The notes: generated by a model from the sequence alone, not told the origin. DNA of 64,000 nucleotides from a bacterium (GCA_020444065.1 JAHLLQ010000010.1:11677-75676); one strand, 5' to 3'. Shown: positions 4,302 through 46,460, counted from the first letter of the stretch. Translations and numbers: made by a program.

Positions 4302-4312
4302 AGGGAAAGTTA

Positions 4313-5487: not shown

Positions 5488-5494
5488 AGGCTGT

Positions 5495-5931: not shown

Positions 5932-5966
5932 GAGTAAGAGCAGAAGAGTGCTGGTGGTGTTCTCTG

Positions 5967-24935: not shown

Positions 24936-27182
24936 TCAGGAGTCGATCTTCTTGAGGCGGGAGAAGTTGAGGGTGATTTCCTGGCTTCGGCCGTCGTCGA
25001 ATTCGACGTAGACTTTGGAGGCGCTGAAGCCGGCGGAGACTTCGGTGATGGTGCCGGGGCCGAGGACTGGATCTTCGACGCGATCGCCGACGTTGAAGCC
25101 GGCACGGCGGGTCTGCTTCGCGCGGCGCATGCCGGAGAGGGGCGAGACGGAGCTGCTGGCGGGGGAGCGGCGCGCCCAGGAGGAAGCGCTCGGGCGGCTG
25201 GAGTAGCCGCTGTATCGGCTGCGTCCGGAGAGGCCGAGGGTTTCCTGGCCGAGCTGGTCGAGGACTTCCTGCGGGAGCTCGCGCAGGAAGACGGATGGTT
25301 CGGTGTAATCCCATTGGCCGTAGGTCATGCGGCGTTCGGCGCGGGAGAGGTAAACGCGCCGGCGCGCGCGGGTGAGCGCGACGTAAAAGAGGCGGCGTTC
25401 TTCTTCGAATTGTTCCGGGTTATCGACGGTGCGGCTGTTGGGAAAGACGCCCTGGTCGAGGGCAACGATGAAGACGTAGTCGAACTCGAGGCCCTTTGCG
25501 TTGTGGACGGTCATGAGACTGACTTTGGGCGAGTCGTCGCGTTCTTCGCGTTGGGAATCGAGCGCCATGGTCTCGAGGAAGAACGCGAGGGAGTGGTCGG
25601 CGTATTCGGCCTCGAATTCGGAAACGACCGTTTCGAGTTCGTCGATGTTCTCGAGTCGCGCTGCGCCATCGAGGGATTCCGGATCGCCGACGCCCTGCTT
25701 TCGATAGTCCGTGTCTTCGAGGATCGCCTTCAAGATCTTCGATGTCGGTTCCTCGGCTGCCATGACGTGCCACTTCTTTACATCGGCAAGGAATTTCTCG
25801 AGCCCTTTACGGGCTTTACCTTTAAAGGCGTCTTCGGCGAGAAGTTGACGGGCGGCTTCGAATTGGCTGCAGCTCCGGAAAACGGCGCGCGAGGCGATAT
25901 CGGAGAAGGACTTTGCACCAATTCCACGCGTCGGAACGTTGACAATGCGTTGGAATGCAAGGTCGTTGGTTGGTTGATCGGCCAGGCGAAGGAAAGAGAG
26001 GAGATCCTTGATTTCGCGCCGTTCATAAAACCGCATTCCGCCGATGATGCGATAAGGAACCTTGGCGCGGATGAAGGCATCTTCAAATGGGCGCGAGATG
26101 CGATGGCTGCGATAGAAGATGGCGACATCCTCGGGGTTCGCATCCTGGGCGTAGAGGAGGGTTGAGATGCTCTTCGCAACCTGCTCGGCCTCTTCGCGAT
26201 CGTCCGTACCGCTGATTGTGTAGAATGGATCGCCAAGTTCCTTTTCGGTCCAGAGTTTCTTACCGATGCGCATCGAGTTGTTTTCGATGACGGCGCCGGC
26301 GCCTTTCAGAATGTTTCCAGCAGACCGATAATTCTGTTCCAGGCGGATGAGTTTTGTATCTGGGAATTCCTTCTGGAATCCAAGGAGATTGGAAACATCC
26401 GCGCCACGCCAGGAGTAGATCGACTGATCTTCGTCGCCCACGACGCAGATGTGATGATGGTCCTGGACGAGGAGTTTTACCAATTCGAACTGGCTGTAGT
26501 TAGTATCCTGGAATTCATCGATCAGGACATAGCGGTACTTGTCGGCCCAGCGTTTCCGAACTTCTTCGTGTTCGCGGAACAGGCGCACGCAACGGAAGAT
26601 GAGATCTTCGAAATCGAGCGCGTTATTATCATTCAACACGCGGTCGTAGTGTTCGTAGATTTCGGCGTAGGGAATCTCCGACGAGTCGAACTCCTCGCGG
26701 CACTCGGTCGGGGTCAGGAGTTTCATTTTGGCGAGTGTGATAAAGTGGAGCGCCTGGCCCGGTTTGACGCGCTTTGGGTCGATGTCGCAGGCCTCCATGG
26801 CTTTCTTCACGGCGGTCTGCTGGTCGTGCTCGTCGAGAATTGCAAAGTTCCGTTCGAGGCCTGCCGATGCGGCTTCGCGGCGCAGGATGGCAGCACAGCG
26901 GCTATGGAATGTCGAAATAGCCAGGGAGGGGTCGTCCGGGACACTCAGCAAATAGCAAATCCGCGAACGCATTTCTCGCGCGGCCTTGTTCGTGAATGTG
27001 ACGGCGAGAATTTGCCACAGCGGAATACCCACCACATGCGAAAGGTACGCAATGCGGTGGGTAATGACGCGGGTCTTTCCGCTGCCTGCGCCGGCGATGA
27101 CCATGAGCGGGGTGCCATGGTGCGTGACGGCTTCCTGCTGCTGCGGGTTCAGGTTTGCAAGGATTTGCTGTTCCAGATCCAT
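24936..27182 (-). CDS. uvrD: ATP-dependent DNA helicase UvrD/PcrA (superfamily 1A)
   Basis: 748 aa. Walker A GAGSGKT, helicase motifs, C-terminal Tudor-like tail. Start ATG overlaps upstream stop (ATGA). Confidence 0.9.
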   Translation of the reverse strand: MDLEQQILANLNPQQQEAVTHHGTPLMVIAGAGSGKTRVITHRIAYLSHVVGIPLWQILAVTFTNKAAREMRSRICYLLSVPDDPSLAISTFHSRCAAILRREAASAGLERNFAILDEHDQQTAVKKAMEACDIDPKRVKPGQALHFITLAKMKLLTPTECREEFDSSEIPYAEIYEHYDRVLNDNNALDFEDLIFRCVRLFREHEEVRKRWADKYRYVLIDEFQDTNYSQFELVKLLVQDHHHICVVGDEDQSIYSWRGADVSNLLGFQKEFPDTKLIRLEQNYRSAGNILKGAGAVIENNSMRIGKKLWTEKELGDPFYTISGTDDREEAEQVAKSISTLLYAQDANPEDVAIFYRSHRISRPFEDAFIRAKVPYRIIGGMRFYERREIKDLLSFLRLADQPTNDLAFQRIVNVPTRGIGAKSFSDIASRAVFRSCSQFEAARQLLAEDAFKGKARKGLEKFLADVKKWHVMAAEEPTSKILKAILEDTDYRKQGVGDPESLDGAARLENIDELETVVSEFEAEYADHSLAFFLETMALDSQREERDDSPKVSLMTVHNAKGLEFDYVFIVALDQGVFPNSRTVDNPEQFEEERRLFYVALTRARRRVYLSRAERRMTYGQWDYTEPSVFLRELPQEVLDQLGQETLGLSGRSRYSGYSSRPSASSWARRSPASSSVSPLSGMRRAKQTRRAGFNVGDRVEDPVLGPGTITEVSAGFSASKVYVEFDDGRSQEITLNFSRLKKIDS

Positions 27183-30100
27183 CAGGGTTTATCCAACCAC
27201 TCCTTGGACTTCTGGCGGAAGCGTTCGTGCGTATCGAGCGAGGGCGGACGCTTGGGTTCCTTGGGCGGGTTCTTTGCCAGTTCGTCGAGAACGACTTCGA
27301 TGCCCTTTTCAAGTTGGCGGTCGCGGCCGGCAATATCGTCTTCGGGCAAATTGTCGATGACGATATCGGGCGTCACGCCTTCATTTTCCATATTCCATCC
27401 GCGGCGATCGTCAAACCAACCGAACTCCGGAATCGTCATTAGGCCGCCGTCGACAAAGGGCTTGTCGGAACGAATGCCGATGATTCCACCCCACGAACGC
27501 GTGCCAATGATCGGGCCGAGATCAAAGATGCGGAAGGTCTCGGTGACGATGTCGCCATCGCTGCCGGCTCGTTCATTCACGAGGCAAACCATCGGGCCGG
27601 TGAAGACGGCATCGGGGTATGTCGAGACGTCGAAGTTGCGCACGTTCGAGTAGGCGTACAGCACACGGCGCAGACGATGGATGACGAGCTGGGATACGAA
27701 GCCGCCGCCGTTGTAGCGAACGTCGACGATCATGGCTTGCTTATCGCGCTGCGGGAACCAGGAGCGGAAGAACTCGATCATTCCCCAGCCGCTCATGTTC
27801 GGCAGGTGAATGTAGCCGACCTTTCCGTCGGTTTTGTCGGAAACGAATTCGCGATTCTCGTTAACCCACTGCTGGTAGCGAATCATGCGATCGTTTGTCC
27901 GCGGAACGATGCGAATCTCGCGGGCGCCTTCCATCTTGGGTTCGCTGTTTACTGTGAGGAGAACTTCGATGTTCGCCTGGTTCCAGAAGTAGCTTTCTGG
28001 GTCGCGGTCGGCGCTGACGCGTTCGCCGTTGATGGCCAGTAGGTAGTCGCCTTCGTTGACATTCAGGCCAGGGCGGCCGAGAGGGGCACGGAGATCGGGA
28101 TCCCAGTTGTAGCCTTTGAAGATTCTCTTAAACCGATAGGCGTTGTTCTCTGAATCGATTTCCAGATCGGCGCCGAGAATTCCCATGGCAACACCCGGGC
28201 CGGATTCCTGGTCCCCACCCCAAACGTAAGTGTGGCCGGTTCCGAGCTCGCCGATCACGTTACCGATCAAGTCGTTTAGTTCTGCGCGCGTAGAGAGACG
28301 ATCAACGAGCGGGCGGTACTTCTCAACTTCGGACTTCCAATCGGTGCCGGCCATGTCGGGCACGTAGTAGAAATCGCGCATGAGGCGATAAAGTTCATTC
28401 CAGATCTGGTGCCACTCTTCGGCGGGATCGACACGGAGGCGAAGGTCGCCGAAGTCGACGGCTTCGGTTTCGCCGGGGATGTCGTCGGTGCGGCTCTTGA
28501 CGACGTAGACGTTCCCGTTCGTTTCGACTGCGAGGTGTTTGCGGTCGCGGCTGACCATATATTGTGAAACTTCGGTGGCGAGGACGGTTTCTTCCGGATC
28601 GTCGTCTTTGTAATTGTAGGCCTTCAGCTGAGTGCCGAGGGATGTCTCTTCGAAGAGTTCTTCGTCCCCGAGTCCATTGTAACTTCCCGAGAGATAGATG
28701 ACGCGATCTTTGACGGCGGTCAGGCCATAAAGTTCCTGTGGGCGGATGTTTTCGAGAACGATCTGGCGATCTTTGATTCCTTCCCAGTCGATGACGACTT
28801 CTTCTGCGCTTTCGCTGTCGTCGTCTTCCCAATCCTCGTCAGCGTCTTCATCTTTCTCCTTCTTGTCCTTCTCGTCGTCTTCCTTGTCTTTGTCTTTTTC
28901 TAGATCTTCGTAATAGTCATTGGGGAAGAAAGGATTCTCCGACTCCTCGGAGAGGAGAACCATGTAGGGCTTTGTCATTGGGGCCAGGATGGTTTCGAAA
29001 TCGACCTGGCCGAGAAGCGGATCGAAGGTTCGGTTGGAAAGATAGAAGAGGTATTCGCCCTTCGGATCCCACGTGGGGCTGAAGGAATTATAGAATGCGT
29101 CGGTGATCGGGCCGGTTACGTCTTCCTTTGAATCATAAATGAAAATCTGCTGGTTGCGGGTTTCGACGTACTTCGCATAGGCGAGATAGCGGCTGTCGGG
29201 GGACCATTCGTATTCGTCGGTTTCCCAGATGTCGCTGTCGTCGACGGTATGAAGGGTGCGCGTTGTGAGATCGGTCCAGTAGAGCGTGCCGACTTGGTCG
29301 GCCCATGCCACGCTGGCGCCGTTCGGAGCGACGACGGGCGGGAAATGCCACTCGCCGTGATTTTCCATTTCTTCAGTAACGATGCCGAGTACTTCGCCCG
29401 TCTTGGCGTCTGCAATGTAAAGCTCTTCTTCGCCGCTGCGGTCGGACCAGAAGACGACTTTCTCGCCATCCTTGCCGGCGAAGACAGCGTCTTTTTCGCG
29501 CGATGAAGAAAGACCGTTTGTCAGCGAGAAGGGGCGGCCTTCTTTGGCGGGAAGGTTGAAGAGCTCGCCGCGTGTCGTGGCAACAAGGCGATCGCCTTCG
29601 GGCGAGAGGTCGAAGCTCTCCAGATAGCGGGAGGGGCTTGCGAAGCGTTCGCGGCGGCGTTGGCGTTCGGAAGGAATCAGAATTTCGACGCGCTCAGCGG
29701 AATCCGAGTCTGTGCTATAAAGATAGATGTCGGCGCCGTGCTGGAAGACGATTCGACTGTCGCCATCGGTTCCGGGGAAGCGTACATCGAAGTCGGTGAA
29801 GTTGGTGTGCTGGCGCAGATCGTTGCCATCTTCATCGAGCGACCAGAGATTGTCGCGGCCGCTGCGTTCGGAAACGAAGTAAATGCGGTCGCCAACCCAC
29901 ATCGGATCGGTATCGTGGCCGGGGAACTGGGTGAGTTCGCGGAACTTCCCGGTCTGAAGGTCGCCGATCCAGACGTCGTCGCTGGTGCCGCCCATGTAGC
30001 GCTTCCAGGTCGCCCAGGCGGTGGCGAGACGATTGAAGACGACGCGGCGGCCGTCGGGATTGACGGAGTTGAAACTGGCCTGGCCGAGGGGGAAGAGCTC

Positions 30101-30550
30101 GGATGGGCCGCCTTCGCGCGGCACGGTGTAGACGTGCGCGACGTAGAACGGATCATTGCGGGAACTGAAGAAGAGGATGGACTTGCCATCGGGGGTCCAG
30201 CCGGTGACGCGGTCGGTATAGCTGTTCCAGGTCAGCCGCGTGGGGGAGCCACCTTCGACGGGTATCGTGTAGACATCGTAGCTGCCATCGTAGTCGCCGG
30301 TGAAGGCGATCGTCTTCCCATCGGGCGAGAAGGCGGGCATCATTTCGTTGCCCGGGACGGTGGTCAGGTGTTCTGCGACGCCTCCGGAAACGGGGACTTT
30401 CCACAGATCGCCATCTGCGGCGAAGACGATTGTATCGCCGTGAATGTCTGGATAGTTATAGTAGCCTTCGTGTGCGGCGGTTGCGATGCTCGCCAGGAAG
30501 GCGAGGGCGGTGAACGCCAAAAGGGAGACGCGTGTGGCACGTCGTTCCAT
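27182..30550 (-). CDS. Tricorn protease homolog (beta-propellers + PDZ + S41 peptidase)
   Basis: Signal peptide. PD40/TolB-like propeller repeats (SPDGKTIAF...). S41 motifs DVRYNGGG and LVNERAGSDGD. Start set at MERRATRV (30550). Confidence 0.8.
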   Translation of the reverse strand: MERRATRVSLLAFTALAFLASIATAAHEGYYNYPDIHGDTIVFAADGDLWKVPVSGGVAEHLTTVPGNEMMPAFSPDGKTIAFTGDYDGSYDVYTIPVEGGSPTRLTWNSYTDRVTGWTPDGKSILFFSSRNDPFYVAHVYTVPREGGPSELFPLGQASFNSVNPDGRRVVFNRLATAWATWKRYMGGTSDDVWIGDLQTGKFRELTQFPGHDTDPMWVGDRIYFVSERSGRDNLWSLDEDGNDLRQHTNFTDFDVRFPGTDGDSRIVFQHGADIYLYSTDSDSAERVEILIPSERQRRRERFASPSRYLESFDLSPEGDRLVATTRGELFNLPAKEGRPFSLTNGLSSSREKDAVFAGKDGEKVVFWSDRSGEEELYIADAKTGEVLGIVTEEMENHGEWHFPPVVAPNGASVAWADQVGTLYWTDLTTRTLHTVDDSDIWETDEYEWSPDSRYLAYAKYVETRNQQIFIYDSKEDVTGPITDAFYNSFSPTWDPKGEYLFYLSNRTFDPLLGQVDFETILAPMTKPYMVLLSEESENPFFPNDYYEDLEKDKDKEDDEKDKKEKDEDADEDWEDDDSESAEEVVIDWEGIKDRQIVLENIRPQELYGLTAVKDRVIYLSGSYNGLGDEELFEETSLGTQLKAYNYKDDDPEETVLATEVSQYMVSRDRKHLAVETNGNVYVVKSRTDDIPGETEAVDFGDLRLRVDPAEEWHQIWNELYRLMRDFYYVPDMAGTDWKSEVEKYRPLVDRLSTRAELNDLIGNVIGELGTGHTYVWGGDQESGPGVAMGILGADLEIDSENNAYRFKRIFKGYNWDPDLRAPLGRPGLNVNEGDYLLAINGERVSADRDPESYFWNQANIEVLLTVNSEPKMEGAREIRIVPRTNDRMIRYQQWVNENREFVSDKTDGKVGYIHLPNMSGWGMIEFFRSWFPQRDKQAMIVDVRYNGGGFVSQLVIHRLRRVLYAYSNVRNFDVSTYPDAVFTGPMVCLVNERAGSDGDIVTETFRIFDLGPIIGTRSWGGIIGIRSDKPFVDGGLMTIPEFGWFDDRRGWNMENEGVTPDIVIDNLPEDDIAGRDRQLEKGIEVVLDELAKNPPKEPKRPPSLDTHERFRQKSKEWLDKP

Positions 30551-30732
30551 GATTCCATTACCTCTATGTGGAAGTCCGCCCTGGCATGGGCACGGGGCAG
30601 TGGACGGATGCAGCCATAGGGCGACGGGATGAGGCAAGGGGCAATCCAAGGCGCGAAGAGGGGTGTTTTGCGTTGAGGATTGGCTTGTTGCGTGGTTCTT
30701 GAGACTGAAGTTCTGTATTCAGGAGGTCACTC

Positions 30733-31913: not shown

Positions 31914-32333
31914 TCAGTCGTAGGTGCCCTTGCCGGGTGGCAGCGGGCGGTAGTTGTGTTTTTCCTTCAGGACCCGATCGATCTCGGCGCAGAGCTTTGT
32001 GATATCAATGGGTTTCTGGAGGAAGCCTTCGGCGTCCGTCCCCATTTTCCAGAATCCGCCGGGGAGCTCTTCGTTCGCCGTTGCGCCGGTCAGGATGATG
32101 ATGGGGATGTCGCGGAGTTGTTCCTCGTTCTTGATTTTCTCGGTCAGATCGAGGCCATTCATGCCCGGCATGCCGAGGTCCATGATGATGACGGCGGGAT
32201 GGTGCTCGTTGACCTTCTTCCACCCATCACTGCCATCGGTGGCTTCGACCACGCGGTAGAGCGGCTGGAGGCCGAGGCGGAGGACCTTGCGGACTTCCGG
32301 ATCGTCGTCGATGAGAAGAACGAGTGCGGGCAT
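31914..32333 (-). CDS. Single-domain response regulator (CheY-like receiver)
   Basis: LLIDDD...IIMDLGMPGMNGLDL...ILTG...KP receiver signature. Confidence 0.8.
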   Translation of the reverse strand: MPALVLLIDDDPEVRKVLRLGLQPLYRVVEATDGSDGWKKVNEHHPAVIIMDLGMPGMNGLDLTEKIKNEEQLRDIPIIILTGATANEELPGGFWKMGTDAEGFLQKPIDITKLCAEIDRVLKEKHNYRPLPPGKGTYD

Positions 32334-32434: not shown

Positions 32435-34984
32435 TCAGGGCTGGTACTTGATGATGACAGCGCCGAAGGTGTGAAGGCGTGGGATCAGGAGGCGGACGAA
32501 GCCGTCGGTCTGTTCGAAGTCGACAGGGAAGGGCTGCATCATCGCGGGATCGTCGGGGCTGCCGTAGAGGACCTGCGTGACAGTGGCATTCGCCGGCAGA
32601 TTGATGGCGATTTCTTCGTTTGTGAGCGGTTTGACGTCGGGGCGAGGGGCGTTCCAGGTCATTTGCTCGCCGTTGTTGAGGAGCGTGACGGTGATTTCGC
32701 CGCGGTCGTTCTGGAATCCGCGAACGACCGTTCCCGGCATGTAGGACGTCGTTTCGTAATTGGCGACGTTGCGCCCGTGATTCCGTCCAAACAGCAGGGC
32801 GTCGAACATGTTGTAATCGCGAACGATTTGAACGTTTTGCAGCGGGATAGCCACGTTGTCCGGATAGTAGAGCGAGTTGAGGGCGTGCATCTGGTGGTTC
32901 AATTCATCGGGTTCGCCGACGACCATGAGGGATCCGCCGCCAGTCATGCAGATTCCCATCATGAGGCGCAGGCTGTCCGCGGGCCAGTAGGGGGGATCGG
33001 TGAAGCCGGCGTCGGGCGGGTACATTTTGAGGACGACGCGCTGACCGGCCGGTGCGCGGTGGCGATAGCAGATGTCGACGGTGTCTTCGAGGCCGCCCTT
33101 GCAACCGGCCCAATTTTCGATGAAGATGAAGTCGGTGATGTGGTACATTTTCTCGATTCCGAACTCGCAAACGCAGTTGAAGGAAACCGCCGCGTCGGAC
33201 TTCACGGCGTGAGACATTTCGTAAACGTCTTCGATGAACTCGGCGATGATTTCGGAGAGAAGGCGGCCGCTGTGTTTGCTGCCTTCGGAGTAGTAGCGTT
33301 CGTTTGCGGGATGGCCGTAGCTGTCGACTTCGAAGCCGTCGAAGGAGACAAGATCGTCGGGCGATTTGTCCAGTGTCCGGCGGAGTTCCTTGATGATGTA
33401 ATCGTGCCAAGGCGTGTCGTCGGCGATGGCCATCAGCCAGAACCAGACGGGCTCGCCGGCGGCTTTGGCTTCAGGGACGGTCGTGATGCGACCGTTGAAG
33501 ATGCGCGGTTCGCCGCCTGGCGTTGTCATCGGGTAGGGATGGGCTTCGTAGACGCTCTTCGATGCGGCATAGGCAGCGACATAAGCGATTGAGAGAATGC
33601 CGCGCTGGTGACCGGCGTCGATTTTGCCCTGAATATCTTTCGCGTAGACCTTGTTTCCAAAGAAGGGTTCGAACTCGTAGACTTCTTCGGTGGGCGCATA
33701 GTCTCCGTGAGCTGGGAAGTAATCGTAGAACTCGACGCCGTTGATGAACAACTTCGCGAGCATGTCGGCTTTCTTCGCGTAGTTGTCGGAAATCCGATTC
33801 CAGTTTGCGTAGAAGCCATAGCGCAAATCGTCGGGGATATCTTGCACGACGGGAAGGACGATGTAGTCGCGATCGAGAATCTTGTTGTTCTGGTCGAGGA
33901 GGACTTCCAGGCCCAGAGGCCCCTCGCGATCGGGCGTGGAGAGAGGGACGATCAGTTCGTTCTGAGCGATCGGAATTGTGGTCGAAAGCGTTGTAACAAG
34001 ATCGTTGGAGATGACGAGGCGAGCGTTGCATCCGTCGGACGGGAGTTCCCCAAAGCGAACAAGGAGCTGGTTCTTCTCGCCGGGCTTGATCCAGGTCTTT
34101 TCCAGTTCCACCGAAGAGATTCGCGGGCCGGTCATTGGGCGATCGAAAGCGGGGATTTTCGTTGGGTTGAGTTCGCGACCGGGAACTGTGCGGACGTATC
34201 GATCGGGAAGCAGAGAGCGCAGATCGAGCACCGTATTCTCGTCGACGTCGCGTGTATTGACGCTCGGATCGGCGAACCACTCAGCGTCACCGCTCGAGTC
34301 CTCGGCGACGAACTTGTAGCGGATCACGCCGGGCGAGAGATCGATCTTGCGATACCAAACGTCATTGGGGCCGGGGAACATGCGGAAGGCCGGATCATCA
34401 ACGACTCCATCACGATTGTTCCCCCAGGAGTTAAATGAACCGGCGAGGAAGACTCGTTCTGCATCGGGTTTGTGGTAAGTGAAGAGGAAAGCCTTGCCGT
34501 CATCGATCGGTTGTGGTGCGGCTGCGGTATTGAGGGAGATGTTGTACTTCGTGGCGAACTCCTGCGGCGTCATACCGGCTTCTTCGAGGACCGGGGCAAA
34601 GTAGATGGTCTGCTCGCCGGGCGATTCGATTTTGAAGCTCTTGCCCGGACCCACCCAACCATCGCCTGGATCGGCGTTCGTGTCGCAGGCCCATTCGTAG
34701 AGATGGCCCTTGCCCATGGGCAGGTTGACTGCGATCGACCACACGTGATCGCCGGCCGTCGCATCGCCGTGGGTTCCATCGTCGTACAGGGGATAGCGTT
34801 TGTAGTCATTCCAACCGGAGGCGAACCTGCCGGTCTCGGGATCGAAGTTGGCAGCGTAGTAGACGCGGTCGAGAGGTTGCTCGCGGAATGTGTCGTCGTA
34901 GACAAGCGTCACGGACGCGGCGGAGGCCGCCGTGCCGAGCAGCATGAACAGGCCAAGCGATTGAAGTGCTCCGTTCCTTCTCAT
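32435..34984 (-). CDS. Secreted multidomain carbohydrate-active protein: N-terminal CBM-like domain, CBM48/E-set-like domain, TIM-barrel with GH66-like DGFEVD...ENW motifs (paralog A)
   Basis: Signal peptide. SGWNDYKRYPLYDDGTHGD..AGDHVW block shared with two paralogs. WYRKIDLSPGVIRYKFV (CBM48-like). FDGFEVDSYG and IFIENW ~75 aa later. Start ambiguous (34984 or 35014). Confidence 0.5.
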   Translation of the reverse strand: MRRNGALQSLGLFMLLGTAASAASVTLVYDDTFREQPLDRVYYAANFDPETGRFASGWNDYKRYPLYDDGTHGDATAGDHVWSIAVNLPMGKGHLYEWACDTNADPGDGWVGPGKSFKIESPGEQTIYFAPVLEEAGMTPQEFATKYNISLNTAAAPQPIDDGKAFLFTYHKPDAERVFLAGSFNSWGNNRDGVVDDPAFRMFPGPNDVWYRKIDLSPGVIRYKFVAEDSSGDAEWFADPSVNTRDVDENTVLDLRSLLPDRYVRTVPGRELNPTKIPAFDRPMTGPRISSVELEKTWIKPGEKNQLLVRFGELPSDGCNARLVISNDLVTTLSTTIPIAQNELIVPLSTPDREGPLGLEVLLDQNNKILDRDYIVLPVVQDIPDDLRYGFYANWNRISDNYAKKADMLAKLFINGVEFYDYFPAHGDYAPTEEVYEFEPFFGNKVYAKDIQGKIDAGHQRGILSIAYVAAYAASKSVYEAHPYPMTTPGGEPRIFNGRITTVPEAKAAGEPVWFWLMAIADDTPWHDYIIKELRRTLDKSPDDLVSFDGFEVDSYGHPANERYYSEGSKHSGRLLSEIIAEFIEDVYEMSHAVKSDAAVSFNCVCEFGIEKMYHITDFIFIENWAGCKGGLEDTVDICYRHRAPAGQRVVLKMYPPDAGFTDPPYWPADSLRLMMGICMTGGGSLMVVGEPDELNHQMHALNSLYYPDNVAIPLQNVQIVRDYNMFDALLFGRNHGRNVANYETTSYMPGTVVRGFQNDRGEITVTLLNNGEQMTWNAPRPDVKPLTNEEIAINLPANATVTQVLYGSPDDPAMMQPFPVDFEQTDGFVRLLIPRLHTFGAVIIKYQP

Positions 34985-35020
34985 ATCGTCACCTCTCTGT
35001 TTGTTCCCTACCACTTCATG

Positions 35021-36175
35021 TCATTTGCGCGCCAGAAAATCCCACACGGCAGATGGGGCTGTCGTCTCGTCGAAGTTCAGGGTCTTCCACTCACCCGAGG
35101 AGTCGCAGAAGGCCAGGGTTGGTACACGATAGACTCCCATTTGAGCCAGTTCGGTTTGGAAATCGGGGTCGTCTCCAGACAGGAAGAAGAGCGTCTTTCC
35201 TGCGAGGAGTTTCTTTGCGTCCTCGTGAAGGAGGTACTTGCGTTCGAAGGCCCGGCAGGCAGTGTTTCCGTTCAATCGCACGTAGACGAAGACCGAGCCG
35301 CTGTTCTTGATCGCCTGGGCGACGCCTAGAGGGCTATAGGGCTGCCAGGAGTTGTTGGTCTGTGAGGATGTGTTCGATTGTTCGGCGGCCGGTGTGCGCA
35401 GGCGATCGAGGTTGATGATGGAATTGCCATCGCTGTCGGCTTCACGAACGTTGGGGTCGCCGATCCAGTCGAATTTGCCGTCGGTCTTCTCGAGGACGAA
35501 CTTGTATCTCTGCGGGCCGGTTGGGATATCGATCGCCTGGTACCAAAGACCGTTCGGAAGCGATTCCATCAGGCACGAGATATCTGTGATGACGCCGCTT
35601 TCGTTGTTGGCGAATTCGTTGAAGTCGCCTGCCAAGTAAACGCGGCGGGCCGATGGCGCCCAGACGCGAAAGAGAACCTTGCCCTGGTCGTTGAGGCGAA
35701 CGGGCGGGCCGGTGGTGGTCATATCGACGCCATATTGCTTGCTGAGTTGTTGGGGGGAGAGGTCGCTTTCGGGCATGATGGAATACGCGAGGACTTCGCG
35801 CGGCGTATCGTCGGGTACGCGGAAGGATGGGCATGGCCCGAGCCAGCCGTTAGAAGATTCCGAATCGGCATCGGCAGCCCATTCATATGTCTGTTCGGCG
35901 TTGGGCTGAATATTCAGTTTCCATCCCCAAACGTGGTCGCCGGCTTGCCGATCGCCATGCTGGCCGTCGTCAAAGAGTGGGAAACGTTTGAAATCGTTCC
36001 ATCCGGAATCGTACTCACCGGTACCCGGGTGCACATTCAGAGCACAGAAGATCTGTTCGTGAGGTGTCGGGTTTCTGCTGTCGTCGAAGATCAATGTCAC
36101 CTCGGCAGCGGATGTCGTTCCGGCCAATCCCAGGATGGCCAGAGCGGACAGAATCGATGTGGCTGTCTTTCTCAT
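35021..36175 (-). CDS. Secreted paralog B: same N-terminal CBM-like + CBM48-like domains, C-terminal thioredoxin-like domain, no catalytic barrel
   Basis: Signal peptide MRKTATSILSALAILGLAGTTSA. SGWNDFKRFPLFDDGQHGDRQAGDHVWG; LWYQAIDIPTGPQRYKFV. Start fixed at ATG 36175. Confidence 0.5.
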   Translation of the reverse strand: MRKTATSILSALAILGLAGTTSAAEVTLIFDDSRNPTPHEQIFCALNVHPGTGEYDSGWNDFKRFPLFDDGQHGDRQAGDHVWGWKLNIQPNAEQTYEWAADADSESSNGWLGPCPSFRVPDDTPREVLAYSIMPESDLSPQQLSKQYGVDMTTTGPPVRLNDQGKVLFRVWAPSARRVYLAGDFNEFANNESGVITDISCLMESLPNGLWYQAIDIPTGPQRYKFVLEKTDGKFDWIGDPNVREADSDGNSIINLDRLRTPAAEQSNTSSQTNNSWQPYSPLGVAQAIKNSGSVFVYVRLNGNTACRAFERKYLLHEDAKKLLAGKTLFFLSGDDPDFQTELAQMGVYRVPTLAFCDSSGEWKTLNFDETTAPSAVWDFLARK

Positions 36176-36195
36176 GTTGATACTCCCGGTCGTGA

Positions 36196-37089
36196 TTAAC
36201 CTTTCAATCCCGTCATGGCGATGCCTTCGATGAACGTGCGCTGTGTGAAGAAGAAGAGCACGACAATCGGCATAACCACGAGGGTTGAGGCGGCCATTAG
36301 CAGGTTCATATCGGTGCCGCCGTGTTTGCTTTGGAAGTGTTGCAGGCCAAGTGCGAGCGTGAACTGGTTCTGGTCCGTGAGGTAAATCAACGGGCCCATG
36401 AAGTCGTTCCACACCATCATGAAGGTGAAGAGTGCAACGACGGTGATGGCGGGTTTTGCGAGTGGTGCAACGATCAGGACAAATGTTCTGAACGGTCCGC
36501 AGCCATCGATTTCGGCGGCTTCGGTCAGGTCCTTCGGGATCGTCATGAAGAACTGGCGCAGCAGAAAGATGTTGTAGGCCGAACCGAAGAAGGCGGGCAC
36601 CCAGAGGGGCATGAATGTTCCGACCCAGCCAAGCGAGCGGAAGATGGAGTACATGGGAACCATGAGGACGGGGAAGGGAATCATCATGGTTGCGAGGCTG
36701 GCGGCGAAGATGGGATCGCGTCCGCGCCAGTTCACACGCGAGAACCCATACGCCGCGAGCGCGCAACTGACAACTGTGCCGCCGACACAGAGCACGCAAA
36801 GGTACAGCGTATTCATGGCGTATTTCCAGAAGGGGATCTTCTGGGTGGCTTCGATGTAGTTCTGCCAGCGGAATGGACTTGGGATCCATTGCGGCGGGAT
36901 CTGCATGGCCTGAGTGAGTTCCTTGAAGGACGTGGTCAGCATCCACAGGAATGGAAAGATGAAGAGAACCGAGAAGAGGATGAGCACGGCGTAAAGGGCA
37001 ACGCGATTAGCGATGTGCCCAAAATCAACGTTCTTCTGGCGTGGCGCGGCGGCGGGCGCATTCATGACGAGGCTCTCAGGTTCCGGCAT
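36196..37089 (-). CDS. Carbohydrate ABC transporter permease (MalG/UgpE-like)
   Basis: 6 TM helices. EAA-loop region and C-terminal LVVMPIVVLFFFTQRTFIEG. Confidence 0.85.
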   Translation of the reverse strand: MPEPESLVMNAPAAAPRQKNVDFGHIANRVALYAVLILFSVLFIFPFLWMLTTSFKELTQAMQIPPQWIPSPFRWQNYIEATQKIPFWKYAMNTLYLCVLCVGGTVVSCALAAYGFSRVNWRGRDPIFAASLATMMIPFPVLMVPMYSIFRSLGWVGTFMPLWVPAFFGSAYNIFLLRQFFMTIPKDLTEAAEIDGCGPFRTFVLIVAPLAKPAITVVALFTFMMVWNDFMGPLIYLTDQNQFTLALGLQHFQSKHGGTDMNLLMAASTLVVMPIVVLFFFTQRTFIEGIAMTGLKG

Positions 37090-37957
37090 AGTAGAGGTAC
37101 CTTCTTGAGACGAAATGTGCGACCGTGGTGAGCACCGCGATCATGAGGAAGAGAATCAATGCCATGGCGCAGGCGTAGCCCATGTTGAGGTATTTGAATG
37201 CGTGATCGAAGAGGTACATGGTGTAGAAGAGAGTGGAGCGCGCGGGGCCTCCGCCGGTCATGACGTACGGGACGGCGAAGACCTGGAGGACGCCGATGCA
37301 GCCCATGATGACATTGAAGTAAATGACCGGCGAGATCATCGGCAGCGTGACGTTGGCGGTTTTTTGCCACCAGTTGGCGCCGTCGAGCGTTGCGGCTTCG
37401 TAGAGGGCTTTGGGAACGTCCTGCAAGCCGGCGAGGTAGATGACGACCGCGTTGCCGACTCCCCAAAGACCGGTGAGGACAAGCGCGGGTTTCGACCAGG
37501 AAGTATCGCCGAGCCAATCGGGTCCGTTAATGTGTGCGAGGGAAAGCGCGTAGTTGATGACGCCGAATCGGCCGTTGAACATCCACTGCCAGAGGATCGC
37601 GAGCGCGACAAGCGGGACGAGCGACGGCAGGAAGAAGATGGTACGGAAGACGGAGCGGCCGATGACCTTTGCGTTCAGCAGCAGGGCCAGTCCGATGGAG
37701 AGAACCGTGCCGAGCGGGAGCGCGAGGAGGGCGAAGAAAACCGTGTTCCACAACGATTGCCAGAAGACCGGATCGGTGGAGAGGTCGCGGTAGTTTCCGA
37801 CGCCGATGAAGATCGGGTCCTTGAGCACGGAGTAATCGCAGAAGCTGTAGTAGAGCGCCATGCCGGACGGCAGGAGAATGAAGCAGGAGAGGCCGATCAG
37901 CCATGGCGCAATAAACAGAAGACCGGTGATGAGGCTGTTTCGTTCGCGTTGGGTCAT
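37076..37957 (-). CDS. Carbohydrate ABC transporter permease (MalF/UgpA-like)
   Basis: Polytopic. EAATLDGANWWQKTANVTLP EAA motif. Overlaps downstream permease start. Confidence 0.85.
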   Translation of the reverse strand: MTQRERNSLITGLLFIAPWLIGLSCFILLPSGMALYYSFCDYSVLKDPIFIGVGNYRDLSTDPVFWQSLWNTVFFALLALPLGTVLSIGLALLLNAKVIGRSVFRTIFFLPSLVPLVALAILWQWMFNGRFGVINYALSLAHINGPDWLGDTSWSKPALVLTGLWGVGNAVVIYLAGLQDVPKALYEAATLDGANWWQKTANVTLPMISPVIYFNVIMGCIGVLQVFAVPYVMTGGGPARSTLFYTMYLFDHAFKYLNMGYACAMALILFLMIAVLTTVAHFVSRRYLYYAGT

Positions 37958-39318
37958 TCTTCCGACCTCCACTCTTCTTTGCGTTCCTCGGCGATGCGTT
38001 TCCATTGTTGGAGCGCTCGGTCGAGTTTCGGTTGGATGCGTTCGCGCACGACGGTCAGGGCCTCGTCGGGTTCGGCTTTATCGCGCCAGATGAGGTCGAA
38101 CGCGTTGGTGAATTCATCGCGGAGTTCGTTGAAGATCTGCGTCTTGGGCGTGTAGCGCGCATTCGGCGATTCGGCCAGGTTGCGGAAGACGCGGATATAA
38201 GGATTTGGGTGTTGCTTGTAGAAATCTTCGGAGACTTCGCGCAGGGGTGAGAACTTGCGCTGGCCGAGGCAGAGCATTTCCATATTCTCCTGGCGCTGGA
38301 CGAACTTGATAAAGTCCCACGCTTCCTCTTTGTGGCGCGCGCCGCGTGGAATGACGAGGACGTCGGCTTCGCAGATCGTGACATCTTTCAGTTCCGGGTC
38401 GCTGGACGGGAACGGCGCGACGGCCCAATTGAGGTCGGGATTGTACTTTTCGACGAAGTTCGCCATCCAGACGCCCTGGAGCTCCATCGCGACTTTGCCG
38501 GAGATGAAGAGGTTTTGCGCGGAGCTGAACTGGCCGCCGGCGGACTGGAAGACCTGGAGGGTCTTGAAGCCGTACTTCTCGGGGTAGCTTTGTACCCAAT
38601 CGTAGGCGGCGATGTTCTCGGGCGAGTCCGTGACGATCTTTGTTCCATCTTTGCTGACGAGGCGACCGCCGAACCAATAGCACCAGCGCTCGTTCCACCA
38701 GCCGGGTTCGGTCGGGCTGAAGCCGAGCTGGGTGATCTCGCCGTCTTCGTCGATCTTGGTGAGCTTCGCGGCGTACTCGTCGAGTTCTGCGATCGTGCGC
38801 GGCGGCCGATTGGGATCGAGGCCGGCTTCGCGGAACATGTCTGTGTTGTAGTGCAGCGCGAGTGTGGCGGGTGTGCTCGGCAATCCCCAGATGAAACCGT
38901 GGTGTTCGCATTGCTCGCTGATGACGGGCAAGTAGCGGTCCATGTCGAAGCCGTCGCGTTCGATCAGTCCATCGAGCGGTTCGAGTGCGCCCATATCGGC
39001 GTAGGTGTAGAGTCGCCAGGCCCAGAAGCCGGCGACGTCGGGCGGGTTGCCTCCGGAGGTTGCGAGCAGGAGTTTCTGCTCGATCTGGCCGGTGCTGAGG
39101 AATTTGACGAAGACCTTGTCTTGCGATGCGTTGTACTTGTCGACGACGGCGCGCATCGCGTCCTTCTCGAAGTCCTCCCACTTTTCCCAGTACTCGACGA
39201 TGACGCGGCCATCCTCTGTGCGGTCGGGTTTTTCGCGCACGCAGGAGGTCAATCCAGTCATCGCGGCGACGAGCACCAGGCCGGCCAACAGAACGTTGAT
39301 TCGATTCTTGAGGCGCAT
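37954..39318 (-). CDS. Extracellular solute-binding protein (family 1) of sugar ABC transporter, lipoprotein
   Basis: Signal peptide/lipobox LTSCV. SBP_bac_1-like length and motifs. Start at ATG 39318. Confidence 0.85.
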   Translation of the reverse strand: MRLKNRINVLLAGLVLVAAMTGLTSCVREKPDRTEDGRVIVEYWEKWEDFEKDAMRAVVDKYNASQDKVFVKFLSTGQIEQKLLLATSGGNPPDVAGFWAWRLYTYADMGALEPLDGLIERDGFDMDRYLPVISEQCEHHGFIWGLPSTPATLALHYNTDMFREAGLDPNRPPRTIAELDEYAAKLTKIDEDGEITQLGFSPTEPGWWNERWCYWFGGRLVSKDGTKIVTDSPENIAAYDWVQSYPEKYGFKTLQVFQSAGGQFSSAQNLFISGKVAMELQGVWMANFVEKYNPDLNWAVAPFPSSDPELKDVTICEADVLVIPRGARHKEEAWDFIKFVQRQENMEMLCLGQRKFSPLREVSEDFYKQHPNPYIRVFRNLAESPNARYTPKTQIFNELRDEFTNAFDLIWRDKAEPDEALTVVRERIQPKLDRALQQWKRIAEERKEEWRSEE

Positions 39319-39425
39319 GGAATACGTCTTCCGAAAACGGGATGTGCTAACTTGTTCAAACCTTGATCGTGGTCGATTGTTCGGGAGGTGCAATCCCTGG
39401 TTCGCGATTCCGCGGCATAGTGCGT

Positions 39426-41267
39426 TTATCCGCCGGCGCCGGAGAGCGATTCCTTTTCGGATGTCGCATCGGCCAGGCCGTAGGCGCCGGTTCCGTATGC
39501 GATGGCATGGGCGACGAAGCCTGCGCAGGTTGCGAAGTGCTCGCCGCTTTCGGGAAGGCCGGTTTCGACGTTGATGCTCTCACAGGCAATGCCGTTGTCC
39601 ATCGGCGCACGGCGCAGGAGATCCAGTCCCTGTTCGACGCGGACGCCGCTGAGGATGCTGTTGCAGGCGCTGAGGATCCAGGGGTGCGGATCGCCGTCGG
39701 TGTGGCGATTACCGAGCTCGCTGAACGGTCCCGGCATGCAGTAGGGGTAGGCCTTGGAATAGAGGTGCTCGACCGTGCGGCGGAAGGTCGCGGCGTCTGC
39801 GCTGCACAACCCGTAGTAGGGGAGCAGAAGCAGGCTGCCGGCAGCCTCGTCGTACATCTCGCAGGAGCCCTTCAGGTCGGCGGCCCACTGATAGAGGCCG
39901 TTGCGGACAAGGTGGTGATCGATCGCCTTGGCAATGGCGTCGACTTCCGCGCGCGCCCATTCGGCTTCTGCGGGCTGGGTTTCTTCAAGAATCGGAATCA
40001 GCATGCGGAGGGTCTGGCGCACGAGTGCGTTGTTGTACGTCAGGACGTCGCGTCCGCCGACGATCAAGTCATCGGTCGGCATCAGTTCCGTGCGGTAGAG
40101 GGCTTCGCCGTCGACACGCCAGGACTTGAGTCGGCGAAGGAGTTCGCGAATTCCGGCGGCAATCTGAGGTTCGCGCCAGGCGGGGTCATCGGGATAAAGG
40201 GCGCACCACTGGCCGACGGCGAGGAGAGGGGCGACGAGTTCGTCGAGCTCGAAGCCATACTCGAGAATCTGGCCGTTGATCTGGCGACTGTGAATTCCGG
40301 CGTGCGGCAACTGCGGGCCGAAGGCGTAGCGAAGCAGTTCGCGGGCGTGCTCTCGGTCGTTTCGCAGAAGGAATGGATACAACCACAACAGCGAGTCGCG
40401 ATCCCAGTAGGCCGCGGACACGTAGTAGCGATGGCTGCGGGACGTCATGGAAACGACACGGCTGGTATCGAGAGTGCGCGCCATGGCATAGAACCGTGCG
40501 AAGTGCGCGTTGCGGTTGGCTTTCGCGGCCAGCCGGTTGTCGCCGGGCACCGGGATGGTGCGTTCAGCCAGCCATTCGACGGTCCGGCGCTGCCATTCCT
40601 TGATGGGGACGCGGTGGGTCTCCAGGTCGGCGGCGCGGGCTCCCACGCGAGACAGCCCCAGGCCAACGACGAGGTCCGCACGGCCCTGGCAATCGACCTC
40701 GATCGAGAAAGCGGAGAGCGTTTCGACGGGCCCGGTGCCGGCATTGAGGCTGTGCTCGCGGCCATTGGCGTGCAGCCGGTAGTCGGCGCCGCCCGGGGAG
40801 CGAAGAGAAATCGTAAAAAGGAGCGTTCCCGCGAAGATTTCGATCACGACGCCTGGGGTGTGAGACCAGTTGAAGTGCTGGATCCGGCAGACCCAATCGG
40901 GCAGCTCGTGGCGGACGTTGATCGTCTGGAAGATGCGGCCGATGTTCATGGTGAAGCGCGCCCCGCGGGGGCCTTCGGGGCCGCGATAGACGAAGAAGCG
41001 CTGGCGCGGCGGGGCGAAGACGCACCCGGCGCGGCCGCCATCGGTGTGCTCGAAGCACGGGATCCAGTGCTGGAGGAAGTGCCACTTCCAGGCGTCGGGT
41101 TCGGTCGCCATGGCGTCGCACGCCAGGAAAGGGGCGCCGTCGCCTTCGACGTCGATCAGCCCGTCGGCCTTCTCGAGGACGATGTTCATGCCTTCGATGG
41201 CGCCATCCGACTCACGAACGGTCGGGAGGGCGATGTACTCGTTTCCGGTTGGGTGATAGGTGGTCAT
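39426..41267 (-). CDS. (alpha/alpha)6-barrel glycoside hydrolase, GH125/GH63/GDE-like (family uncertain)
   Basis: 613 aa, no signal peptide. N-terminal beta-rich region then helical barrel with YYVSAAYWDRDSLLWLYPF (W-x-RDS motif as in GH125). Confidence 0.45.
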   Translation of the reverse strand: MTTYHPTGNEYIALPTVRESDGAIEGMNIVLEKADGLIDVEGDGAPFLACDAMATEPDAWKWHFLQHWIPCFEHTDGGRAGCVFAPPRQRFFVYRGPEGPRGARFTMNIGRIFQTINVRHELPDWVCRIQHFNWSHTPGVVIEIFAGTLLFTISLRSPGGADYRLHANGREHSLNAGTGPVETLSAFSIEVDCQGRADLVVGLGLSRVGARAADLETHRVPIKEWQRRTVEWLAERTIPVPGDNRLAAKANRNAHFARFYAMARTLDTSRVVSMTSRSHRYYVSAAYWDRDSLLWLYPFLLRNDREHARELLRYAFGPQLPHAGIHSRQINGQILEYGFELDELVAPLLAVGQWCALYPDDPAWREPQIAAGIRELLRRLKSWRVDGEALYRTELMPTDDLIVGGRDVLTYNNALVRQTLRMLIPILEETQPAEAEWARAEVDAIAKAIDHHLVRNGLYQWAADLKGSCEMYDEAAGSLLLLPYYGLCSADAATFRRTVEHLYSKAYPYCMPGPFSELGNRHTDGDPHPWILSACNSILSGVRVEQGLDLLRRAPMDNGIACESINVETGLPESGEHFATCAGFVAHAIAYGTGAYGLADATSEKESLSGAGG

Positions 41268-41300: not shown

Positions 41301-41843
41301 TTACGGTCCGTAGCGGTGGATATCGCCGAAGGAGACGGTGCCGTTGGTCGGGTCGTACTGCACGGGATCGGGGCTGGACTGGAGGCTTTCCTCGAGATCG
41401 GGGCCGAGGCTTTGGAGGCGCCACTTGGCGCTTTCTGCGCCCTCGTGACCGGGGAAGGACTGCCAGACCTGTGGCAGGACGGTGGCGGTGTCTTCTTCGC
41501 AGAGGTAGTCGAAGGTCCGCAGGGGATTGTCGTTATTGGACAGATCCGGGAAGGGGTCCTTTGGAATGGAGGTCATGTAGGCGACCGGGGTGGTGAGGCG
41601 GACCAGTCGTTCGGCGAAGGTCAGGAAGTAGCGCGGGGTGCCGTTTTGGGAGGGCGGGTAGTGGTTGTGGTCGACCGCGTAGGATTCGACCGCCGTAGCG
41701 AGCGAGCGCATGTCTGCCTCAGCGCGGCTGACCTTCGAGCGGGTCTGGGCTTCGAGGAAGTTCGGGACGGCGATGGCCGCAAGAATAGCGATGATAGCAA
41801 CAACGATGAGGAGTTCGATCAGAGTGAAAGCTCTGCGATTCAT
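41301..41843 (-). CDS. Prepilin-type N-terminal cleavage/methylation domain protein (type II pseudopilin-like)
   Basis: MNRRAFTLIELLIVVAIIAILAAIAVPNF class III signal. Confidence 0.6.
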   Translation of the reverse strand: MNRRAFTLIELLIVVAIIAILAAIAVPNFLEAQTRSKVSRAEADMRSLATAVESYAVDHNHYPPSQNGTPRYFLTFAERLVRLTTPVAYMTSIPKDPFPDLSNNDNPLRTFDYLCEEDTATVLPQVWQSFPGHEGAESAKWRLQSLGPDLEESLQSSPDPVQYDPTNGTVSFGDIHRYGP

Positions 41844-41884
41844 GGGGCATTCCTCCAGCGGTTTTGTCGAAGCGCTTCAACCCA

Positions 41885-41900
41885 TGGGCGTCGTTTTTGG
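41885..41900. promoter_or_regulatory. Predicted LacI-family operator palindrome (GTCGAAGCGCTTCAAC)
   Basis: Near-perfect 16-bp palindrome around central CG, 40 bp upstream of the pilin/GH/ABC operon start. Confidence 0.55.
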
Positions 41901-41984
41901 AGCGTTTCTGCGAGGGCGGGAAGACCGGGCTTTGGTCGGGAGAATGGGATGTTTGCTTGAGGAGCAGCGCTGACGTTAGGTTTC

Positions 41985-42000
41985 GTGTAAGCGCTTCAAC
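41985..42000. promoter_or_regulatory. Predicted LacI-family operator (GTGTAAGCGCTTCAAC)
   Basis: Second copy of the palindrome, 100 bp further upstream. Confidence 0.5.
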
Positions 42001-42155
42001 TGGGCGCGTCAAGAGAAAGTCGTTGGGGGCGTGCGGAAAGGTCGCGGGGGAGACCGAGGGGGCGGAAGCGGTTGGATTCGCCAGGCGTGAATATGGGGGT
42101 GTCAGGAACGTAGGAGGGGCAGAGATGAGCACACCTGGATGGACGGAGGCGGAGT

Positions 42156-42380
42156 ATGGGTCTTCTGATGCTGGTTTGCGTGGCGATCGTGTACTATCGA
42201 GCCGCGGAACATGATGGGAAGTCGGGGGGACTGGCCGTTCTGGCGTGCCTGGGATTGTGGTGGCTGCTGGGTTGGGCGGGGCTCGGGACGCTGCTGACTT
42301 GCGTGGCGCTGCTGGTGATTCTCTTCCTGGTGTATCCGACGCTGCAGGTCCTGGGAGAGCTGCTCGTAAAGGGCAAGTGA
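42156..42380 (+). CDS. Small hypothetical membrane protein (74 aa)
   Basis: Two predicted TM helices. Weak evidence. Confidence 0.3.
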   Translation: MGLLMLVCVAIVYYRAAEHDGKSGGLAVLACLGLWWLLGWAGLGTLLTCVALLVILFLVYPTLQVLGELLVKGK

Positions 42381-42430
42381 AGCCGAGCGTTTTCTGTTTG
42401 ACAGCCGCGGGGTGTGGGGCTACGGGTACT

Positions 42431-42446
42431 GTTGAAGCGCTTACAT
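42431..42446. promoter_or_regulatory. Predicted LacI-family operator (GTTGAAGCGCTTACAT) upstream of the lacI-family gene (autoregulation)
   Basis: Same palindrome, 49 bp upstream of ATG 42495. Confidence 0.5.
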
Positions 42447-42494
42447 AGAGGGCCACCTTCCGGGGCGGCGACTTGCCCCAGCGAGCAGACTCCG

Positions 42495-46240: not shown

Positions 46241-46460
46241 TTCCCACTCCCGATAGTGAATAGCCAGCCTGCAATAGGACACAGTCTTCGTGTGTCGGAC
46301 GGCGGTCAATAACGAAGATGGACGACGGGAAATGTTCTTGTCGGGCCAAGAAGGTAACGATAGCACTCTGTGGAAAGACCGATTCAAATTGGACCGATAA
46401 CAGTTGACGCGCACAAATGGTAACGATAACTCTCGGGGCAACATTTTGTGAGAGATTCCC

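Follow-up and report, generated by a model that had tools for sequence, protein, structure and literature searches.

The 64,000-nucleotide (nt) stretch of DNA analyzed here (GCA_020444065.1, JAHLLQ010000010.1:11677-75676), which comes from an uncultured Sumerlaeia-type bacterium and is called the window below, carries three related genes, A, B and C, whose products are recorded in GenBank as hypothetical proteins. An earlier note made from the DNA alone had described them as paralogous secreted proteins with a shared N-terminal module. Judged from their sequences, A and C belong to a divergent, deep branch of glycoside hydrolase family 66 (GH66), and B appears to combine the N-terminal half of A with a thioredoxin-like domain. 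The three genes and their features are listed here, counted from the first letter of the window (aa, amino acids; CBM, carbohydrate-binding module).

32435..34984, minus strand: gene A, 849 aa (GenBank MCB2156836.1, "hypothetical protein")
34589..34915, minus strand: N-terminal module of A, aa 24-132, predicted CBM20-like beta-sandwich of about 109 aa
34205..34507, minus strand: CBM48 of A, about aa 160-260 (boundaries approximate), PF02922 E 3.4e-5
32438..34132, minus strand: predicted GH66 region of A, from PF13199 and a family profile against 8IU8
33323..33325, minus strand: codon of A D554, predicted catalytic nucleophile in FDGFEVD, aligned to FjGH66 Asp293
33116..33118, minus strand: codon of A E623, predicted acid/base in DFIFIENW, aligned to FjGH66 Glu355
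35021..36175, minus strand: gene B, 384 aa (MCB2156837.1, "hypothetical protein")
35777-36106, minus strand: predicted CBM20-like module of B
about 35396-35698, minus strand: CBM48 of B
35024..35356, minus strand: C-terminal thioredoxin-fold domain of B, aa 274-384, the last 111 residues
54374..56611, plus strand: gene C, 745 aa (MCB2156849.1, "hypothetical protein", exact sequence match)
54452-54781, plus strand: predicted CBM20-like module of C
about 55019-56608, plus strand: predicted GH66 region of C
55724-55726 and 55925-55927, plus strand: codons of C D451 (predicted nucleophile) and C E518 (predicted acid/base), counterparts of A D554 and E623

Gene A starts with an ATG at 34984 behind a GAGAGG ribosome-binding site and encodes a signal peptide, the CBM20-like module, CBM48, a GH66 N-domain, a (beta/alpha)8 barrel and a C-domain, in that order. 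Gene B starts with an ATG at 36175 behind a GGGAG site. It encodes a signal peptide, the CBM20-like module, CBM48 and the thioredoxin-fold domain, with no catalytic barrel. A 641-aa open reading frame at 35021-36946 was rejected as gene B, as its first 257 residues overlap a permease gene in another frame and the GenBank entry has 384 aa. Gene C starts with a GTG at 54374, also with GGGAG ahead, and encodes a signal peptide, the CBM20-like module, a linker of about 80 aa without assignment and the GH66 region. The coordinates first given for A and B stand, but C had been placed 60 nt further upstream at a TTG (54314); no such 765-aa form is on record, and the 745-aa GTG form is the GenBank entry. 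The three proteins carry the locus tags KQI84_18310, _18315 and _18375 under the record name "hypothetical protein [bacterium]", and the gaps to the preceding genes are 36 nt for A and 20 nt for B. Inspected by eye, the N-termini of A, B and C resemble Sec signal peptides without a lipobox Cys, and all three proteins are predicted to be secreted by their presumably diderm host.

The three proteins are true paralogs, far beyond chance. A and B share 39% identity over their first 260 aa (E 9e-65), and A and C share 35% identity over 599 aa of the enzyme part (E 7e-99). Their N-terminal modules (N-modules) also align pairwise, with E 1e-17 for A and C and 1e-22 for B and C. A six-frame regex scan of the window found the DDG..GD..AGD..W motif exactly three times, once in each protein. 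The paralogs are old rather than the outcome of a recent local expansion, because orthologues of A, B and C all occur in another Sumerlaeia genome.

The barrel of A and C had been compared with GH66 enzymes, and this assignment held. Pfam PF13199 (Glyco_hydro_66, cutoff 23.7 bits) matched A with E 1.9e-33 and 116.3 bits over model positions 67-540 of 546, and C with E 8.4e-22 and 77.9 bits. An alignment of 28 members of this branch served as the basis of a family profile and of the invariance calls for the enzyme part. Aligned across chain residues 20-575 of 576, the dextranase FjGH66 (8IU8) was the best match of the profile cited here (E 3.5e-22), and the profile also matched TpDex (5AXG/5AXH, about 1e-17) and the cycloisomaltooligosaccharide glucanotransferase (CITase) structure 5X7G (2e-16). 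The domain layout of 8IU8 has been described (PMC10316084), and the end-to-end alignment to it supports the same three-domain core in A, predicted as an Ig-like N-domain at about aa 285-375, the barrel at about 376-745 and a C-terminal beta-sandwich at about 746-849 (boundaries approximate).

The catalytic motifs agree with this placement. In A, DGFEVD spans residues 549-554 and FIENW residues 621-625, with motif starts 72 residues apart; in C, DGFEID spans 446-451 and FVENW 516-520, with starts 70 residues apart. The motif spacing first quoted was about 75 residues. The profile alignment to 8IU8 pairs FDGFeiD with FDGFHID and DFLFlEiW with DFLYTEVW. Chain positions D283 and E345 of 8IU8, plus a construct offset of 10, give Asp293 and Glu355, the catalytic residues of FjGH66 (PMC10316084). 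The regions proposed earlier as nucleophile and acid/base map to these residues, with the second Asp of DGFE(V/I)D and the Glu of (F/I)(V/I)ENW as the equivalents. D554, E623 and D421 of A, the last being the Asp of FYD(W/Y), are invariant in 28 of 28 family members, and D554 and E623 are 69 residues apart compared with 72 in PsCITase (Asp309 to Glu381). The hallmark GH66 motifs RYGF, FYD(W/Y), FDGFxxD, the catalytic E-x-W and GE all align with dextranases. For one member of the A family, the 736-aa protein P0080 (36% identity to A), the record names the chytrid fungus Rhizophlyctis rosea as the source; this reflects either bacterial contamination of the assembly or horizontal transfer.

Ahead of the catalytic core, A carries a CBM48 that also occurs in B. 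PF02922 scored 24.5 bits in A and 33.6 bits in B against a curated cutoff of 22.4 bits, and C has no CBM48. The YKFV signature by which a glycogen-binding or E-set-like domain had been recognized is present in both proteins. The A-family profile also matches the AMPK beta CBM, and CBM48 is a family-wide trait of the GH66 branch of A.

The N-module had been considered unassignable to any known CBM. The block beginning SGWND that was quoted as shared by all three proteins is literal in A and B, whereas C holds the looser variant DTWSGFERFALSDDGLHGDEAAGDGIW. A carries the "choice-of-anchor X" loop DDGTHGDATAGDHVW at aa 68-82. The corresponding NCBIfam model NF041940 has a curated cutoff of 25 bits, and it scored 27.0 bits in A, 26.6 in C and 24.0 in B, the last just under the cutoff. 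The PGAP annotation names a B orthologue (P0168) "choice-of-anchor X". NF041940 models a 37-residue motif without assigned function; here, the motif forms a single loop within a full CBM20-like domain (about 109 aa). A literature search on "choice-of-anchor" returned nothing relevant to the NF041940 motif.

Structure prediction, which had been proposed as a check of the novelty of the N-module, pointed to a familiar fold. The AlphaFold2 model of the module reached a predicted local distance difference test score (pLDDT) of 92.1. Foldseek against the PDB returned CBM20 domains as all of the best 37 matches, with template modeling (TM) scores of 0.5-0.6 and probability 1.0; these were domain E of cyclodextrin glucanotransferase (CGTase), the starch-binding domains of beta-amylase and glucoamylase, and STBD1. 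A sequence profile of the N-module, built from an alignment of 15 modules, found no PDB match even at E 10. The same profile retrieved small proteins (100-190 aa) with precomputed Pfam CBM_48, AMPK1_CBM or CBM_20 assignments, and these bear MYDDGTHGDxxAGDGIW inside the CBM-scoring domain. In hhalign, the N-module matched both the CBM20-type and the CBM48-type groups of small proteins with 98.9% probability, over 95 columns for the CBM20-type group.

Residue conservation refines this picture. In a MAFFT alignment with the Aspergillus niger glucoamylase starch-binding domain, the W543, W563 and W590 columns hold Trp in 24 of 24 sequences, corresponding to W58, W82 and W110 of A. W543, W590 and W563 are the signature tryptophans of CBM20 binding sites 1 and 2, and their numbering was checked against the 1AC0 alignment. 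The DDGxHGDxxAGD block forms the loop before the W563 strand and is 4 residues longer than in CBM20, and a further insertion, PETGRFASGW, surrounds the first tryptophan of the module. Compared with the CBM20 domains of glucoamylase (1AC0), CGTase (domain E) and STBD1, the N-module thus shares the fold and the three tryptophans, and it differs in the longer loop, the insertion and several residues discussed below. The modeled structure argues for a divergent CBM20-like domain and not a new fold. Together with the NF041940 motif, the profile links to small CBM20- or CBM48-scoring proteins and an occurrence in about 1,000 protein clusters, this assigns the module to a CBM type already on record; the barrel remains in GH66. 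One half of what the earlier note had named as refuting its reading therefore applies.

The module is widespread. A HMMER scan of 1.84 billion representative sequences found it in 1,019 proteins at E<=1e-3 and in 242 at E<=1e-10. These include giant repeat proteins and surface proteins sorted by the type IX secretion system (T9SS), where its companions are CBM9, pullulanase X25, CBM48 and LamG domains. Within the GH66 branch, the module is limited to the closest Sumerlaeia-type orthologues, in 4 of the 35 loci with an A-family gene that we collected from GTDB species representatives. One Sumerlaeia locus from a metagenome-assembled genome (MAG), L001, encodes an orthologue of the C barrel at 3647-6115 (822 aa, 48% identity) without the N-module and with some 230 additional residues at its C-terminus. 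Orthologues therefore differ by gain or loss of the N-module.

B had been described as replacing the barrel with a thioredoxin-like domain, which the structural model bears out. The C-terminus of B matched Pfam PF13899 (Thioredoxin_7) at E 6.8e-4, under the cutoff, and a four-sequence profile of this region matched DsbD-gamma at E 2e-4. The AlphaFold2 model (pLDDT 90.8) gave TM 0.70-0.75 to thioredoxins and DsbD-gamma in Foldseek, and the cis-Pro loop RVP is present. At the CxxC position, B has N-T-A-C and its homologues N-x-R-C (G-N-x-R/A-C), aligned to C-V-A-C of DsbD-gamma, with Asn in place of the first Cys and C307 as the single conserved Cys left in B. A redox function for B was rejected; because CxxC is absent, the domain is probably redox-inactive and a classical dithiol role is unlikely. 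Another difference from DsbD-gamma is that, in B, the domain is joined with two CBMs within one predicted secreted protein. Only four homologues of B were detectable, all Sumerlaeia-type, and one of these (270 aa) is without the thioredoxin domain.

The genes around A, B and C include a transporter and several putative carbohydrate-active enzymes.

36196..39393, minus strand: ATP-binding cassette (ABC) sugar importer, directly upstream of B, Pfam SBP_bac_1 and BPD_transp_1
37954-39393, minus strand: solute-binding protein of the importer
37076-38005, minus strand: permease of the importer
36196-37089, minus strand: permease of the importer
39426-41267, minus strand: GH125-like protein, 613 aa, upstream of the solute-binding protein
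41301-41843, minus strand: pseudopilin-type protein, upstream of the GH125-like gene
46461-50204, plus strand: GH81, 1247 aa, GH81 C-terminal domain (beta-1,3-glucanase family), heading the string GH81, GH31, C
50321-53542, plus strand: GH31, 1073 aa, directly upstream of C

Along the minus strand, the genes run in the order pseudopilin-type gene, GH125-like gene, solute-binding protein, two permeases, B and A. L001 repeats this order; its operon also includes the orthologue of the C barrel, and A is followed there by a GH13 that carries CBM48. The order solute-binding protein, permease, permease, B-like, A-like is also kept in a second Sumerlaeia contig. The GH125-like protein is 64% identical to its syntenic L001 counterpart; only the C-terminal half of Pfam GH125 matched it (2.9e-10), and 3QPF matched weakly. 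The GH31 of the window is closest to LlGH31_u1 (7WJ9; E 1.6e-117, residues 61-681), a nigerose-specific alpha-1,3-glucosidase (PMC9061262), and has about 390 extra C-terminal residues including DUF5110. The pseudopilin-type gene (N_methyl / T2SSG; DUF1559 in L004) recurs at L001 334-870, L003 5550-6263 and L004 6663-7454, and adjoins GH66-like loci in Sumerlaeia, Cerasicoccus (Verrucomicrobiota) and Abditibacteriota.

Across the 35 loci, the most frequent partners of the A family are transport genes and GH31. A homologue of the solute-binding protein occurs in 19 loci, 16 of them at 45-70% identity to that of the window, permeases in 16-17 and GH31 in 15-16. A LacI regulator is present in 14 loci, GH13 in about 10 and a GDE_C-like protein in 8. 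The GH125-like gene occurs in 3, all among the closest relatives, and GH81 in none. A conserved fungal-wall locus, composed of GH81, the alpha-1,3-glucosidase-like GH31 and the GH125-like protein, was rejected on these last two counts, though such a locus is still conceivable for the organism of the window. The loci come from Sumerlaeota, Verrucomicrobiota, Abditibacteriota, Armatimonadota, Planctomycetota, Lindowbacteria and one Spirochaetes MAG. The pairing of enzyme and transporter, often with GH31, recurs in Verrucomicrobiota, and the GH31 partner in Cerasicoccus is closest to the GH31 dextranase FjDex31A (6JR6, 1.5e-73). In other phyla, GH13 enzymes that resemble pullulanase and neopullulanase are also among the neighbors.

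Based on these results, we favor, with moderate confidence, an alpha-glucan utilization system in which A and C are secreted retaining endo-alpha-glucanases of GH66 equipped with binding modules, B is an accessory protein and the ABC importer takes up the products. The enzymes would act by classical double displacement, with the Asp of FDGFE(V/I)D (A D554, C D451) as nucleophile and the Glu of (F/I)(V/I)ENW (A E623, C E518) as acid/base. Their non-catalytic modules, the N-terminal CBM20-like domain and in A also CBM48, would hold them on polymeric alpha-glucan, and the DDG-HGD-AGD-W block would be an elongated CBM20 site-2 loop. B, as a putative duplicate of the N-terminal half of A (CBM20-like plus CBM48) fused to a thioredoxin-fold domain, would most likely be a non-catalytic glycan-binding accessory protein. 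The ABC transporter whose genes immediately precede B and A would take up the released oligosaccharides, which exo-enzymes such as the neighboring GH31 would then trim. The substrate is probably an alpha-1,6-rich glucan, dextran or isomalto-type and possibly branched; this is the default because alpha-1,6-glucan is, to our knowledge, the only chemistry known for GH66.

Known dextran systems follow a similar plan. GH66 endo-dextranases such as FjGH66 (8IU8), TpDex (5AXG), Bacteroides thetaiotaomicron BT3087 and Streptococcus mutans Dex have the same three-domain core as predicted for A and C, align in the catalytic Asp and Glu and the surrounding motifs, and are likewise encoded with GH31 and an oligosaccharide importer. 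Their kinship to A and C, however, is visible by profiles only. The A branch also carries CBM48 ahead of the core, in Sumerlaeia together with the CBM20-like module, and the locus of A has an ABC importer in place of SusC/D. The pair of GH66 and GH31 is the core of the characterized Bacteroidota dextran polysaccharide utilization locus (PUL), and FjDexUL of Flavobacterium johnsoniae comprises GH66, GH31, GH97, GH65 and SusCDE (PMC10316084). The A/B/C locus would follow the same logic, in which an endo-GH66 works on the outside alongside glycan-binding proteins without catalytic function, an importer takes up the products and exo-glycosidases, GH31 among them, complete the set. However, in this locus the binding protein B is built from CBMs and SusC/D gives way to an ABC transporter, and it has a GH125-like gene and GH81 but neither GH97 nor GH65.

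Several observations weigh against the favored system. On the side of the enzymes, the branch of A and C is only remotely related to characterized GH66 members. A phmmer search of the PDB with A alone returned weak CBM20 matches and no GH66 structure, and the family profile was needed because this single-sequence search missed the solved GH66 structures. The equivalog model for the endo-dextranase BT3087 (NF052487) has a cutoff of 730 bits, of which A reached 57.6, and the literature on GH66 with CBM48 yielded no characterized member of this branch. For the N-module, Pfam, including CBM_20 (PF00686), gave no relevant match to the isolated modules even at E 10. Most N-modules have Glu in place of the CBM20 site-1 Lys (K578), and they lack the site-2 tyrosines Y527 and Y556; glycan binding by the module is therefore plausible but not assured. 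CBM20 and CBM48 also classically bind alpha-1,4/alpha-1,6 starch or glycogen and not dextran. FjGH66 hydrolyzes neither starch nor pullulan (PMC10316084). The neighborhood adds further points. The best solved relative of the solute-binding protein is 4R9F "MBP1" (7e-57), far ahead of maltose and maltodextrin binders (about 1e-20). 4R9F is a presumed manno-oligosaccharide binder; a literature search on 4R9F/MnBP1 returned no paper. A GH125-like gene sits in the operon of A and B, and GH125 is an alpha-mannosidase family. C is preceded by a GH31 nearest to an alpha-1,3-glucosidase and by a GH81 beta-1,3-glucanase.

An activity other than on dextran is unlikely overall, but starch- and glycogen-type CBMs, GH13 neighbors in related loci, the nigerose-type GH31 of the window, the GH125-like gene of the operon and the kinship of the solute-binding protein to 4R9F leave room for another specificity. 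The best-placed rival, itself rather unlikely, keeps the fold and mechanism and assumes a specificity new for GH66. Its candidate linkages are alpha-1,6 bonds in glycogen- or pullulan-type glucans, mixed alpha-1,3/alpha-1,6 or alpha-1,3/alpha-1,4 bonds (alternan, nigeran, fungal-wall alpha-glucan) and even alpha-1,6-mannan. The remoteness of the branch, the family-wide CBM48, the GH13 and GDE_C-like neighbors in other phyla, the position of C after GH81 and GH31, and the operon's GH125-like gene and 4R9F-related solute-binding protein would all fit. Against it, every hallmark GH66 motif aligns with dextranases. The most widespread partners, GH31 and a sugar ABC importer, mirror known dextran loci, and the Cerasicoccus GH31 resembles a dextranase. 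The GH81 and GH125-like genes are not conserved partners outside Sumerlaeia.

A related reading, possible though doubtful, sees a CBM48-bearing deep GH66 branch with a specificity not yet known in the family, joined in Sumerlaeia by B as a capture protein that feeds the ABC importer. Candidate substrates would be glucans resembling glycogen or pullulan, attacked at their alpha-1,6 linkages, or alpha-glucans of mixed linkage, and the branch occurs in Sumerlaeota, Verrucomicrobiota, Abditibacteriota, Armatimonadota and Planctomycetota. B, with its CBM20-like module, CBM48 and redox-dead thioredoxin fold, would hand oligosaccharides to the importer, and the whole would be a PUL-like system outside Bacteroidota.

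It is improbable that the N-module is mainly a cell-surface or structural "choice-of-anchor" element, that is, a Ca2+-stabilized spacer or attachment domain, with B as a surface scaffold. The NCBIfam name does reflect surface proteins with varied sorting signals, many of its matches are giant repeat or T9SS-sorted proteins without an enzyme domain, the motif is Asp/Gly-rich as in calcium-binding loops, and the CBM20 site-1 Lys and site-2 Tyr are not conserved. However, the three CBM20 tryptophans are invariant, the same loop occurs within bona fide CBM20- and CBM48-scoring domains, and the module is here fused to glycoside hydrolases and CBM48. An anchoring role is in any case compatible with the favored alpha-glucan system, and the two are not mutually exclusive. 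It is most improbable that A and C are CITase/CI4Tase-type transglycosylases whose cyclic isomalto-oligosaccharides are imported by the ABC system: GH66 does include cyclizing glucanotransferases and the A-family profile does match 5X7G, but CITases have a CBM35 inserted in barrel loop 7 that sets product size (PMC5408701), a Pfam scan found no CBM35 in A or C, and the profile aligns end to end with a dextranase, and this function was rejected.

Returning to the favored alpha-glucan system, the A/B/C locus is best described as a divergent branch of GH66 whose set of CBMs is unusual, together with an accessory CBM protein, a finding that is real but fairly ordinary. If confirmed, it would extend GH66 by a branch that is widespread in the environment and differs in its modules, which are CBM48 and in some cases the CBM20-like domain as well. 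The "choice-of-anchor X" motif would be explained in structural terms, as the loop at site 2 in a domain of the CBM20 type, and the uncultured phylum Sumerlaeota would have a concrete alpha-glucan utilization operon. Current understanding is not overturned. Automatic annotation already labels orthologues "GH66 family protein" and "choice-of-anchor X domain-containing protein".

Other genes of the window surround these features. A response-regulator gene (31914-32333, minus strand) comes after A, and beyond it lies a tricorn-type protease of 1155 aa (27182-30649, minus strand) with PD40 repeats, Tricorn C1, PDZ and Peptidase_S41 domains. Upstream of the pseudopilin gene lie two open reading frames of 281 and 296 aa (41719-43451, minus strand), which matched neither Pfam nor NCBIfam and lack a counterpart in L001. 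A 1002-aa protein (43616-46624, minus strand) has a trypsin-like peptidase domain, and its C-terminal region matches choice-of-anchor J and M36-type metallopeptidase tails. GC skew is positive in every 2-kb bin of the window (0.05-0.29), though long genes lie on both strands.

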